This document shows positions 50,437-53,356 of a DNA stretch of 64,000 nt, one piece after another (position 1 is the stretch's first letter; each line of letters starts with the position of its first letter). The notes below the pieces were generated by a model. That model worked only from the letters and a program-made list of their open reading frames with translations. It was not told where the DNA came from and made no database searches. The stretch spans positions 128,001 through 192,000 of the forward strand of contig CALSPG010000007.1 in assembly GCA_943788175.1 (NCBI GenBank). The letters are read 5' to 3'. The position numbers were made by a program, and so were the translations under genes. The DNA is from an uncultured bacterium. GTDB taxonomy: Bacteria; Fidelibacterota; Marinisomatia; Marinisomatales; UBA1611.

Positions 50437-50684
50437 GATTTGTCAAGTACTAAAAGATCTTGGCTAGAAAATACGATTAAGAGAATAATTTTTCAATATT
50501 GAAGAATAGTATTCAATACTTTATGTTAAATAGGTATTAAGAAAAATTTTAAAAAATTGAAATCAATCAGTTTTTATTGACCTTCACACGAACAGATGAT
50601 AACTTCTTGCAAGCTCTTTTAAGTTTATAAGTTCATTGACTTAAGTATGAGCAATAAATGTAAATTAATTATAACGAGGTGTTT

Positions 50685-51116
50685 ATGTCAGATTGGACAA
50701 ATAGTCATGATTTAGTATACGCATTTGTTTGTGTTTCTTTTCTCGCTGACGGAGAAGTTGATGAGTCTGAGAAAGAAGCAATGCGTGGGAATGTTAAAGT
50801 TATGCTTCCTGATATGGGGGATGACGAGTATCACCAGGTTGAAAAAGAAGTTATTGATAAGTTCATTGCATTAGGTGATGAAACTTCTCGTTTCAGCCAA
50901 TATGGTTCTTCTCTTAGCGCAATCAAAGAAATGTTTTCATCTGATGATGATCGGTATAAGGTTATAAAAAACCTTGCTTATATTGCTAGAGCAGATCAAT
51001 TCATTCATGAAAATGAAATGAAAATGGTTGAGCAAGCGGTTACTGATTTAGATATGGAAGATAAAGTTAGCTTAGTTAAAACGGAGTCAACTCTTTTCGT
51101 TGATTTCAAATCGTAG
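50685..51116 (+). CDS. TerB-like (tellurite-resistance TerB fold) protein
   Basis: Two acidic motifs ADGEVDESE and IARADQFIHENE; GAGGT RBS before the ATG at 50685. Confidence 0.75.
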   Translation: MSDWTNSHDLVYAFVCVSFLADGEVDESEKEAMRGNVKVMLPDMGDDEYHQVEKEVIDKFIALGDETSRFSQYGSSLSAIKEMFSSDDDRYKVIKNLAYIARADQFIHENEMKMVEQAVTDLDMEDKVSLVKTESTLFVDFKS

Positions 51117-51137
51117 CCTTCTAAATAAAGTATACTA

Positions 51138-51175
51138 ATTAGTGCCCGATTTTAATTATCGGGCACTAATATTTT
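51138..51175 (+). terminator. Probable intrinsic terminator hairpin after the TerB-like gene
   Basis: Perfect 13-bp inverted repeat ATTAGTGCCCGAT-7nt-ATCGGGCACTAAT followed by ATTTT. Confidence 0.7.
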
Positions 51176-51199
51176 GAAGATTAAATAAGGTAAAAAATA

Positions 51200-51352
51200 A
51201 TGTCGGAAAAAAGAACGCACAGTGACGATAGAAGAAATGATAATAGAAGATTAGAGGATCGCAGGAAAGAATCCATGTCAGTAGAAGAAGAGAGAAGAGA
51301 GAGTAATAGAAGAGCTGACGAACGCCGGTCTAGAGAAGAGCGACGCTCGTAA
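51200..51352 (+). CDS. Small 50-aa (D/E/N)RR-repeat protein, not in the supplied ORF track
   Basis: Hand translation: MSEKRTHSDDRRNDNRRLEDRRKESMSVEEERRESNRRADERRSREERRS*; AAGG upstream; fills an otherwise empty spacer. Confidence 0.7.
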   Translation: MSEKRTHSDDRRNDNRRLEDRRKESMSVEEERRESNRRADERRSREERRS

Positions 51353-51367
51353 CAACTTAATTCCCTT

Positions 51368-52042
51368 TTAGCAGTATACTCTTTCCATACCAGATAAAAA
51401 GTTATTTAGCGAAGATAAAGCTAAATCAATAGATTCTAGAGCTTCTTCTTTTTTCAAATCAGTATCACAAACCTCACCCAACAATTCTTTAATTATTTGT
51501 CTATGAATAATATCAGCAGACTTGTGCACTTCAAAAAACTTTAGTGTTTCATCGCCTTCTACTGCGCCATAATATCTTTTTAATCCATCAATTTTATTTT
51601 CAGCTATTTCAGGTATCATAGACTCATAGCAATAAAGCGCACTAAACCCTTTATGATACTTCTCGTCTTTCGATAATTTCATAAAATTAGTTACTAGCTC
51701 TTCAGTCTCTTTGATAGCAGTGGTCTTTTTTACGCTATCCCTATCTTTGCCCATGCCTTCAGCAAAACGCATCCATAATTCAGGATGGTTTTCTTCACCA
51801 CGTTCTTCATCAATAAGATTTTCAAGAATCTCTTGTCTTACATTAATATTATCACAATTTGAATGAATTGATGATAGGTATCTTGGGAAGGCAGCTACAT
51901 GCTTAAAATATTGAGCTGCATATTCTTGGATCACAGATTTTTTTAATTCTCCAGCATTCCAGGCCTTATAGAATGAATGATTAAGCAGGTGATGTTTTTC
52001 AATTTTTCTTTCAATCGTATTTAGAAAGTCAGATTTGTTCAT
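51368..52042 (-). CDS. CADD/CT610-family heme-oxygenase-like dimetal oxidase (putative self-sacrificing pABA synthase)
   Basis: HLLNHSFY.AW..GEL, EYA.QY, FPRYLS.IHS.C, NLIDEE...NH..LW, YE..IP.IA..KI.GL, FF.VH..AD..H. Confidence 0.88.
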   Translation of the reverse strand: MNKSDFLNTIERKIEKHHLLNHSFYKAWNAGELKKSVIQEYAAQYFKHVAAFPRYLSSIHSNCDNINVRQEILENLIDEERGEENHPELWMRFAEGMGKDRDSVKKTTAIKETEELVTNFMKLSKDEKYHKGFSALYCYESMIPEIAENKIDGLKRYYGAVEGDETLKFFEVHKSADIIHRQIIKELLGEVCDTDLKKEEALESIDLALSSLNNFLSGMERVYC

Positions 52043-52075: not shown

Positions 52076-53356
52076 TTAACCAAGCCATATTCCGGCACAG
52101 AAAAATAACCCCGTTAAGAAGTGTAATCCAATAGTTCCTGCATTAGCTGGTTGTAATAATCTGTTATCATAATGTTTGTAGAGGGTTTTTATTGTGAAAA
52201 TACTGTATACAGATGTTATTAGTGAAATTAGTGATAGTGTAGGAAATGTAGTTGGTCTTGTCCAAGCTAAAGCTATGATGCTAACAAATGCACCAACAAC
52301 AAGTGCGACATAGCCTATTCTAGCTTTTTCTGGTCCAAAAACTACTACCAGATTATTTTTCCCTGTTGCTTTATCACCATCATGATCTGGGAATTGATTT
52401 ACAAAAACGATTGCTGCAACTAAAAGTCCAATCGGAATTCCAGCAAGAATAGCATCGTTTATGTGTATCATTTCTCCGCCAGTCTGGACTAAAAAACTCC
52501 CTGCAACCATTAATGGTCCAAAGTTTAGCCCAATCAATAGCTCGCCCAGACCTTTTCGTGATGCAAATCGGAATGGTGGTGCAGTATAAAAGAAACCTGA
52601 TAAAAATCCAATTATTCCTAAGTAAAGAATGCTAATCCCAGCTTTATATATAAGTGGTATTCCTATTAAGGCACTAAGAGCAAATGTTACTATAGCAACG
52701 TTCAGCATGCCTTTGGGTGTTATCAGACCCATTTGAATGCTTCTGCTTCCACCAGAAAACGGAATCATATAATTATAGTTTGCTTCATCAGTACCACTAA
52801 TATGATCATAATAGTCATTAGATGTATTGGTACCAATATGTAGAAAAAACCCTCCTAACATTGTCAGTGTAAAATAAAACCAATCAATATCTACGAATTT
52901 ACTTGCGACTGCAGCTCCTAATAATATGGGAACGATAGTTGCTGTCAAAAATGGTAACCTCATTATTACCATCCAACTAAATAGTTTTGTTGCAAAACTT
53001 ATTTTTGGTCGAACATCCGCTGGCGTTTTATCATGAAGAGGAGATGTGACACCGCAATATCCAATATGGTTTCCACCACTGTCTTTTGTTGGCGTTATTT
53101 TTATTTTACATGGCATTTCATGACCATCTTTGTGTAGAAAAACTGTGTTTCCTTCCCAGGCGCCTTTTTCAACTGATTCAGCTAACCAATTTACAACATG
53201 ACCCAAAACTATTTGACCAGCACTAAAATCACTAACGCGGCCTTTACCAATTATTTCATCTTCTGTGTATCCGAACATATCTTGTGCGCCAGAACTAAAT
53301 GTCTCAATTTTTCCATCTAAATCACACGTGATTACACTTTTTAAATTTTTACTCAT
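52076..53356 (-). CDS. menA: MenA-family (DHNA) prenyltransferase with an N-terminal PAS domain
   Basis: Residues 1-105 PAS-like (DLDGKI..FS.GA..MFGY...EIIGK...HKDG); then RLPFL, NDYYD..SGTD, GGSR, YTAPP...GLGE, NQFPD..GD..TGK. Confidence 0.82.
   Translation of the reverse strand: MSKNLKSVITCDLDGKIETFSSGAQDMFGYTEDEIIGKGRVSDFSAGQIVLGHVVNWLAESVEKGAWEGNTVFLHKDGHEMPCKIKITPTKDSGGNHIGYCGVTSPLHDKTPADVRPKISFATKLFSWMVIMRLPFLTATIVPILLGAAVASKFVDIDWFYFTLTMLGGFFLHIGTNTSNDYYDHISGTDEANYNYMIPFSGGSRSIQMGLITPKGMLNVAIVTFALSALIGIPLIYKAGISILYLGIIGFLSGFFYTAPPFRFASRKGLGELLIGLNFGPLMVAGSFLVQTGGEMIHINDAILAGIPIGLLVAAIVFVNQFPDHDGDKATGKNNLVVVFGPEKARIGYVALVVGAFVSIIALAWTRPTTFPTLSLISLITSVYSIFTIKTLYKHYDNRLLQPANAGTIGLHFLTGLFFCAGIWLG

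Follow-up and report, generated by a model that had tools for sequence, protein, structure and literature searches.

The question raised by this locus is whether a very short open reading frame, in which arginine pairs recur at regular intervals, is a genuine gene and, if it is, with what kind of partner its product interacts. The frame lies in a 64,000-nt stretch (the window) of contig CALSPG010000007.1 (assembly GCA_943788175.1) of an uncultured bacterium of the Marinimicrobia. A sequence-only reading of the window had described it as an unannotated 50-residue peptide of seven (D/E/N)RR units and a candidate sponge for cyclic dinucleotides, with RNA binding or a charged single alpha-helix as other options. 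The SAR406/Marinimicrobia are abundant, uncultured bacteria of the ocean, the regulation of which is almost unknown.

The small gene and its surroundings

The features of the locus are collected in Table 1. The frame and the positions of its RR pairs are exactly as the sequence-only reading had given them. The MSEKRT N-terminus of the protein is followed by three (D/N)RR units, a linker with V28, four (E/N)RR units and the C-terminal RRS, the RR pairs starting at residues 11, 16, 21, 32, 37, 42 and 48, each with D, N or E before it. Five of the units are [DE]RR and two are NRR, and the protein has no glycine. With so many arginines, it would be cut by trypsin into fragments of 2-5 residues.

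Table 1. The small gene and neighbouring features (positions are those of the window)
Feature	Position	Strand	Remarks
Predicted membrane protein, 600 residues	48634..50436	-	charged C-terminal tail; no Pfam family; sub-threshold DUF2254, E 0.58
TerB-domain protein, 145 aa, upstream neighbour	50679..51116	+	Pfam PF05099, E 1.3e-9
GC-rich hairpin, 12 bp, 7-nt loop, then TATTTTG	51139..51169	+	30 nt before the ATG of the small gene
Shine-Dalgarno-like AAGG	51187..51190	+	9 nt before the ATG
Small gene	51200..51352	+	ATG at 51200, stop codon ends at 51352; 50 codons and a stop
CADD-family protein, convergent, downstream	51368..52042	-	TIGR04305, E 9.4e-79
PAS and UbiA-family prenyltransferase fusion, 426 residues, beside the CADD-family gene	52076..53356	-	PAS PF13426, E 1.9e-11; UbiA PF01040, E 1.4e-31

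The arginines of the small gene are encoded by 10 AGA, 3 CGC, 1 AGG, 1 CGG and 1 CGA codons, and the codon table confirms the varied pairs that had been reported (AGA AGA, CGC AGG, CGC CGG, CGA CGC). The sole repeat that Tandem Repeats Finder detected in the ORF is an AGAAGAG run of 17-21 nt at 51283-51303; a 15-nt DNA repeat was not found by this program, and the periodicity therefore resides at the protein level. Among 200,000 shuffles of the peptide that preserved its composition, seven or more RR pairs occurred in 535, and seven or more [DEN]RR units in one.

The 99-nt stretch around the hairpin has a folding energy of -23.3 kcal/mol (z -4.3), which was equalled in none of 200 shuffles. 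The hairpin is absent from the output of the consensus terminator scan, which missed it because just four T follow the extended stem. An Rfam microRNA match on the hairpin was sub-threshold (21.5 bits vs. a gathering score of 116.6) and was taken as a chance match; no Rfam family matched the locus over threshold. The sigma-70 promoter scan gave 9 sites, with 8.0 +/- 2.6 expected, and did not pick out a promoter of the small gene. The TerB-like gene and the small gene lie on the same strand and may possibly be co-transcribed by read-through. A function of the small ORF as a leader peptide or attenuator was considered and rejected, since the downstream CADD gene is convergent, with 16 nt from stop to stop, and the same layout occurs in all eight orthologous loci.

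As a separate observation, the fusion gene beside the CADD-family gene places a sensor domain at the N-terminus of a membrane prenyltransferase, which is an unusual pairing.

Conservation and selection

A six-frame search of 41 related genomes, of the kind that the sequence-only reading had recommended, found orthologues, open and at full length, in seven of the eight other genomes of the same genus (58-82% identity); the eighth, in which no orthologue was found, is 81% complete. The alignment of the eight sequences has 23 invariant columns, including M1, S2, K4, R5, T6, V28 and the C-terminal RRS. Arg accounts for 15 of the invariant columns, which cover all 14 arginines of the RR pairs, and at 12 of these 15 columns two to four different codons are used, AGA/CGC exchanges included; the earlier statement that the repeat is maintained at the protein level agrees with this codon variation as well as with the lack of a 15-nt DNA repeat. 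Values of dN/dS (Nei-Gojobori) range from 0.13 to 0.73 in 27 of 28 pairs, with dS of 0.5-2.1 in 27 of 28. The exception (1.08) is the nearly identical pair L005/L007, with 2 synonymous vs. 8 non-synonymous differences.

The order of the TerB-like gene, the hairpin, the small ORF and the convergent CADD gene is the same in 8/8 orthologous loci, and for L011, L012 and L014, which are the long loci listed, this identity of gene order extends over 8 kb. Inspection by eye showed a GG-containing purine tract 5-9 nt before the ATG in all eight loci of the genus, in line with the ribosome-binding site of its own that had been attributed to the ORF. The terminator-like hairpin noticed earlier is likewise kept in each of the eight loci, where it occurs in two versions with sequence differences in both arms; in three of the loci a clear T run comes after it (by eye). 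These two versions and the T runs make the hairpin most likely an intrinsic terminator of the upstream TerB-like gene.

Gene callers often give the relatives as a form of 67-69 residues with the start inside the upstream hairpin; most of the sequences L005-L007 and P0001-P0022 are called from an ATG located in the terminator hairpin. At the source locus this upstream extension is closed by a stop codon, the open frame there being of 52 residues, so that the MSEKRT start is the conserved one. Since the extension is not conserved and is closed at the source locus, the 67-69-residue form represents a systematic miscall of the start site. One orthologous locus (L016, 63% identity) comes from a public MAG labelled 'uncultured Gammaproteobacteria bacterium'; the label is probably a taxonomic error, because the other titled record is of Marinimicrobia.

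On the evolutionary evidence of dN/dS, frame and codons, the small ORF is a real gene that codes for a protein in this frame and evolves under purifying selection.

Presence in RNA libraries

Logan contigs from four RNA-library (metatranscriptome) runs of four studies were searched for the locus. Contigs cover the ORF in all four runs, and in three of them single contigs run from the TerB-like gene across the hairpin and through the small ORF (X3, 50623-52018; X4, 50727-51611; X8, 50630-51469). Of 15 variant positions in 1.9 kb, the ORF includes two, A>G at 51295 and G>A at 51328; both are synonymous changes in the third base of an Arg codon (codons 32 and 43). Because the contigs carry no information on strand, transcript ends or level, and DNA may contaminate RNA libraries, these results indicate presence of the locus in RNA libraries and do not prove that this strand is transcribed. 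In the runs X3 and X8, which belong to separate studies, the contigs have their first positions at 50623 and 50630, some 50 nt upstream of the TerB-like start codon, which is a weak hint at a transcription start near 50623-50630 for a transcript of the TerB-like gene and the small ORF. The break of a contig of run X1 at 51157-51178, on the hairpin, is probably an assembly effect.

Database searches and predicted structure

Searches for a known family of the 50-residue protein were negative in Pfam (no family at E<=1, PilZ and DUF1127 included), in NCBIfam, PHROGs and PADLOC, and in a sequence profile search of the PDB (no match at E<=10). Literature searches returned nothing on a family of (D/E)RR-repeat proteins and no paper that joins Marinimicrobia with c-di-GMP. 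The exact 50-residue sequence is present in the ESM Atlas, where its 30 hits are unnamed clusters of hypothetical proteins of about 50 residues, none of the 30 with a Pfam family, and metagenome gene callers list its relatives as 'hypothetical protein'. The term 'unannotated' thus applies in a loose sense: there is no named family, but the sequence itself and its relatives had already been called. The gene and its family are real and are undescribed in the libraries searched.

The AlphaFold2 model built from a 30-sequence alignment consists of coil with one three-residue turn (mean pLDDT 64.2, pTM 0.14), without strands and without a helix of four or more residues. In the model of the longer relative P0061, the RR module has pLDDT of 46-59 and two C-terminal helices have 87-91; a Foldseek search of this model against the PDB gave no match at E<=0.001 and chance-level rows only. 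These predictions make disorder in the free state the best description of the 50-residue protein.

The wider family in Marinimicrobia

Related proteins of 44-56 residues and of like layout occur in other families of Marinimicrobia. A protein search with the single sequence gave 31 candidates, none at E<=0.01, and the relatives surfaced only in six-frame searches of genomes and in profile searches. With the profile of the genus, 34 metagenome proteins among 536 candidates matched at E<=0.01, and 18 cluster representatives among 1.84 billion at E<=0.001. In a sample of the phylum, matches reach E<=0.01 in 63 of 401 genomes and E<=1e-4 in 30 of 401, caution being advised for matches between these two thresholds; in one sister family the peptide is matched in 29 of 66 genomes. 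A match in genome G206 (428-residue open frame, E 0.007) is probably spurious; no frame with at least three RR pairs is present there. A search of viral contigs with the same-genus alignment, which covers the N-terminal pattern only, gave 10 pattern matches with no relative among them.

Twelve distant ORFs, from the ten loci L017-L026 and from L027, start with ATG, have 44-56 residues and share a common layout, and each of them has GAGG, GAGA or AAGG 4-9 nt upstream (by eye). Their consensus opens with three (D/E)RR units and continues with [ILV]-P-V-E-x-D-R-R, after which S-G-x-D-R-R and two further units often come; G is often placed between units, P is common in the linker, and D, S, N and G are abundant in the family. 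The peptide is usually encoded in a single copy. The locus L027 (G393:C1:2365414-2368569) has three RR-repeat frames on one strand within 3 kb, namely two ORFs of 47 and 56 residues that begin with ATG and one open frame of 68 residues for which no start codon was found, and looks like a local amplification of the RR-repeat family.

In the alignment of 30 members, which reaches down to 36% identity, R21, R22, R33, R42 and R43 are invariant, and conservation of at least 90% is seen at M1, R11, R16, R17, V28, R37, R38, R48 and R49. The number of [DE]RR units per member varies from 3 to 7. About 66% of residues are charged, the charges being well mixed, and the net charge ranges from -1 to +11 across the family (+3 in the protein at 51200..51352). 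Neighbouring RR pairs are 5 apart in 67 cases and 6 apart in 70. As the two spacings are about equally frequent, the RxxxR motif emphasized by the sequence-only reading is not the conserved feature.

The TerB-like gene adjoins the small gene only within this genus. Outside it, the neighbours include an unknown 472-residue protein, an SSF transporter, an acyltransferase, MaoC, Fic, PrmC and a TonB-dependent receptor; since these vary among lineages, no conserved operon partner emerges there, and the gene neighbourhood was discarded as a clue to function.

The module on longer proteins

The core of the module, (D/E)RR...[IV]PVE.DRR.G.DRR, is found also in other phyla (in records of Planctomycetota, Gemmatimonadota and Acidobacteriota) as an extension on longer proteins. 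The search for these gave 20 matches at E<=0.001, 12 of which were examined and scanned against Pfam. Proteins of the Planctomycete type (about 110-125 residues; one is labelled Gemmatales) have the module at the N-terminus and a conserved two-helix domain at the C-terminus; in P0043, P0058, P0060 and P0061 (108-125 residues) this domain has invariant F-P-T-W and L-G-Y-x-K, and it gave no match in Pfam or NCBIfam and no fold match in the PDB. The module is also present within a 100-residue protein of Gemmatimonadales, in 141-residue proteins with a C-terminal hydrophobic helix and, twice, in proteins of 635-662 residues. In proteins of 350-390 residues, RR-x3-[IV]PVE-x-DRR, which is the repeated unit of P0046-P0048, recurs three to four times and is followed by a glycine-zipper segment; C-terminal transmembrane or glycine-zipper segments characterize P0045-P0048. 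A Marinimicrobia variant, L032, has an N-terminal transmembrane helix. In P0056, the module forms a 105-residue N-terminal extension of the 23S rRNA 2'-O-methyltransferase RlmB (profile E 7.4e-5; TIGR00186 E 1.1e-75).

The Pfam scan of 12 longer forms gave no GGDEF, EAL, HD-GYP or PilZ domain in any of them. The sole weak PADLOC row, a DrmA match on P0054 (E 0.021), was taken as a chance match.

Cyclic-dinucleotide enzymes in the genome and in the phylum

The check for cyclic-dinucleotide enzymes that had been proposed gave a positive result. The source genome (92% complete) encodes one GGDEF protein with a GGEEF active site and an RSID (RxxD) I-site, one HD-GYP-type HD_5 protein and one DAC, while neither EAL nor PilZ was found in it. 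As the ORF is conserved and such enzymes are encoded in the genome, the idea of a nucleotide-binding protein is not refuted on these two points.

In the phylum sample of 401 genomes, a GGDEF domain occurs in 322 and a PilZ domain in only 15. The usual c-di-GMP effector is therefore missing from most of the phylum. By hand count, GGDEF is present in 56 of 63 peptide-positive genomes; the other seven (G003, G006, G271, G366, G368, G385 and G398) have completeness of 58-93%. In family f28, GGDEF was found in 30/30 genomes and the peptide in 0/30, and many other GGDEF-positive families are without the peptide. Two of the 15 PilZ-positive genomes, G132 and G155, have both PilZ and the peptide, so that the two distributions are not complementary. 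The streamlined genus g26, with genomes of about 1 Mb, lacks both, GGDEF and the RR peptide each being present in 0/37 genomes. Because GGDEF is near-universal in the families concerned, its co-occurrence with the peptide speaks neither for nor against a link, and co-occurrence with GGDEF or with the near-absent PilZ was set aside as a clue.

Possible function

We tentatively favour, at a probability of roughly 0.35, the reading in which the RR-repeat protein is intrinsically disordered and folds onto a structured RNA partner. From the starting state of a disordered, mixed-charge, Arg-rich small protein, the seven positionally fixed (D/E)RR units, together with the hydrophobic [ILVM]-x-V-E before the fourth unit, would fold onto a defined polyanionic partner, which may be a structured RNA, with rRNA or a ribosome-assembly intermediate as the first guess. 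Phosphates and the edges of guanines would be recognized by each of the Arg pairs. The acid next to the pair would contribute selectivity among bases and maintain the solubility of the protein in its free state. A specific bound state, formed by folding on binding, is suggested because the RR pairs and V28 are strictly positional and not just compositional features. Arg-rich disordered segments are the commonest RNA-binding tails. The sequence of the RlmB fusion P0056 gives a hint in the direction of RNA, the single-copy gene without an operon partner outside the genus fits a stand-alone factor, and disorder is predicted both for the free protein and for the module in P0061. Against RNA speak the range of net charge and the acid by nearly every RR, which are unlike ribosomal proteins and classical arginine-rich motifs, as well as the membrane-anchored relatives (L032, P0045-P0048), which would be odd for an RNA factor. 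Moreover, the RlmB fusion is one cluster of 6 members out of 20 longer matches, obtained with a compositionally biased profile, and no RNA-binding domain and, in the profile search at E<=10, no PDB relative was found for the protein.

The other readings ask for different partners, or for none. A binder of c-di-GMP or another guanine nucleotide, in which the peptide would fold round intercalated c-di-GMP through DRR and RRxxD and act as a buffer, a sponge or a minimal effector, is possible but doubtful. It would draw on the invariant (D/E)RR unit of the family, on [RK]RxxD in 26/30 members, on the coil predicted for the free protein and on the diguanylate background described above, with GGDEF (GGEEF, RSID) and HD_5/HD-GYP but no PilZ or EAL in the source genome and the excess of GGDEF over PilZ in the phylum. 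The CSP peptide (PMC7382256) makes its contacts through DRR and (R/K)RxxD; nevertheless, the strict DRR-x11-[RK]RxxD arrangement occurs in 0/30 members, and of the residues the loss of which costs CSP affinity, an aromatic is absent from 24/30 members and glycine from the 50-residue protein. The PDB profile search, the library of which should include the CSP1 chain of 6SFT, returned no match at E<=10. Two fairly complete peptide-positive genomes, G003 (93%) and G271 (91%), gave no GGDEF, the many GGDEF-positive families without the peptide (f28 among them) do not suit this reading, and the GGDEF of the peptide-positive genomes says nothing, being near-universal in the families concerned; no c-di-GMP-related domain accompanies the module in the 12 scanned forms (of 20). 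The more far-reaching proposal, by analogy, that (D/E)RR-repeat proteins are natural sponges or effectors for c-di-GMP or guanine nucleotides, a free-standing multivalent counterpart of Cle/CSP that would fill the effector gap of a PilZ-poor phylum, and that the module fused to membrane anchors, the two-helix domain or RlmB would confer nucleotide sensing, we consider unlikely. A similarly low probability is given to a protein-binding regulator, in which [ILV]-P/x-V-E-x-D-R-R would dock as a strand on a conserved partner while the RR units steer electrostatically. V28 with its flanking units is the most conserved non-Arg feature, the repeat unit of P0046-P0048 is this very motif, and the occurrence of the module on unrelated C-terminal parts (TM anchors, the two-helix domain, RlmB) is typical of portable interaction modules, but no conserved neighbour points to a partner, and seven invariant RR pairs exceed what a docking motif needs.

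Readings that dispense with a defined site fare worse. A non-specific protective or condensate-forming polyampholyte, comparable to hydrophilins or 'mixed-charge domains', would act by composition, and the high content of well-mixed charges and the predicted coil agree with it, as does the condensation driven by Arg/Asp mixed-charge repeats in eukaryotes that a preprint (bioRxiv 10.1101/771592) reports. It appears improbable, as composition alone would not be expected to conserve the position of RR pairs and the number of units so strictly across families, and 50 residues are short for condensation. The charged single alpha-helix that the sequence-only reading had offered as its alternative, here as a spacer, recalls the alternation of acidic and basic residues at roughly i/i+4 spacing. 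It is not supported, because AlphaFold2 with the 30-sequence alignment gives coil; the abundance of D, S, N and G, with P common in the linker of distant members, also argues against it, a free-standing protein of 50 residues has nothing to space, and we regard it as very improbable. That the ORF is a chance frame or a non-coding RNA element is hardly credible: its shortness, the empty single-sequence search and the frequent calls of relatives from the hairpin start would agree with such an origin, but the frame and the RR columns are kept in spite of many synonymous changes, dN/dS is below 1, the ribosome-binding site is conserved, and Rfam gives no match over threshold.

The small protein deserves attention as a conserved product that is present in RNA libraries, has an unusually regular and strictly conserved architecture and is absent from family libraries. 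If the reading as an RNA binder holds, it would represent a new class of bacterial mixed-charge RNA-binding mini-proteins. Were it a c-di-GMP binder, the protein would be without natural precedent as a stand-alone linear binder of this nucleotide, and it could be the effector that a PilZ-poor phylum lacks. With its 50 residues the protein can be made synthetically, and its ligand, be it RNA, c-di-GMP or a protein, is therefore accessible to simple binding assays.

Comparison with known systems

The sequence-only reading had based its proposal on the PilZ domain (PF07238), and this argument does not hold. The likeness consists in RRxxxR strings, which are present in 28/30 family members at shifting places, with RR spacing that shifts likewise. 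The beta-barrel of PilZ (a model of about 100 residues) and a Pfam match at E<=1 are both absent from the RR-repeat protein. The second motif of PilZ is (D/N)xSxxG, and the 50-residue protein, without any glycine, lacks it.

The DUF1127 proteins, with CcaF1 as an example (PMC8034643), resemble the RR-repeat proteins in being about 50 residues long, Arg-rich, stand-alone and bacterial, with proposed RNA-related roles. The DUF1127 proteins are mainly proteobacterial and have no tandem (D/E)RR repeat, and the RR-repeat protein gives no DUF1127 match. The GAR domain of fibrillarin, an rRNA 2'-O-methyltransferase (PMC9957100), is similarly a repetitive Arg-based disordered module, and the module of P0056 likewise precedes an RlmB. 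However, the GAR and Arg/Asp mixed-charge domains use RGG or RD dipeptides, whereas the RR-repeat family uses (D/E)RR, with strictly conserved positions, in bacteria and usually as the whole protein.

By analogy, the closest precedent is the Cle/CSP linear motif and not PilZ. According to PMC7382256, CSP, derived from CleD, is the one linear peptide so far known to bind c-di-GMP; free CSP is unfolded, and its binding is specific for c-di-GMP, with a Kd of 19-180 nM. The guanines are hydrogen-bonded by its DRR triad and its (R/K)RxxD turn. [quoted passage not shown] The CSP1 chain in PDB entry 6SFT has 36 residues (PMC7382256). The RR-repeat protein differs from this in several respects. CSP has one DRR and one RRxxD, while the RR-repeat family has 5-7 units that are 5 or 6 apart; the Tyr and Gly needed by CSP contrast with the lack of F, W and Y in 24/30 RR-repeat members, the other 6 having one such residue; and the RR-repeat protein is free-standing, whereas the Cle peptide is a tail on a CheY-like receiver. 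The (R/K)RxxD motif occurs at least once in 26/30 members, the 50-residue protein having a single one (R16-D20), but a spacing of five residues between units creates RRxxD automatically. What the two systems share is a short linear Arg/Asp peptide that is unfolded when free (a predicted coil in the RR-repeat protein), the DRR triad, the (R/K)RxxD turn and a hydrophobic residue before a DRR.
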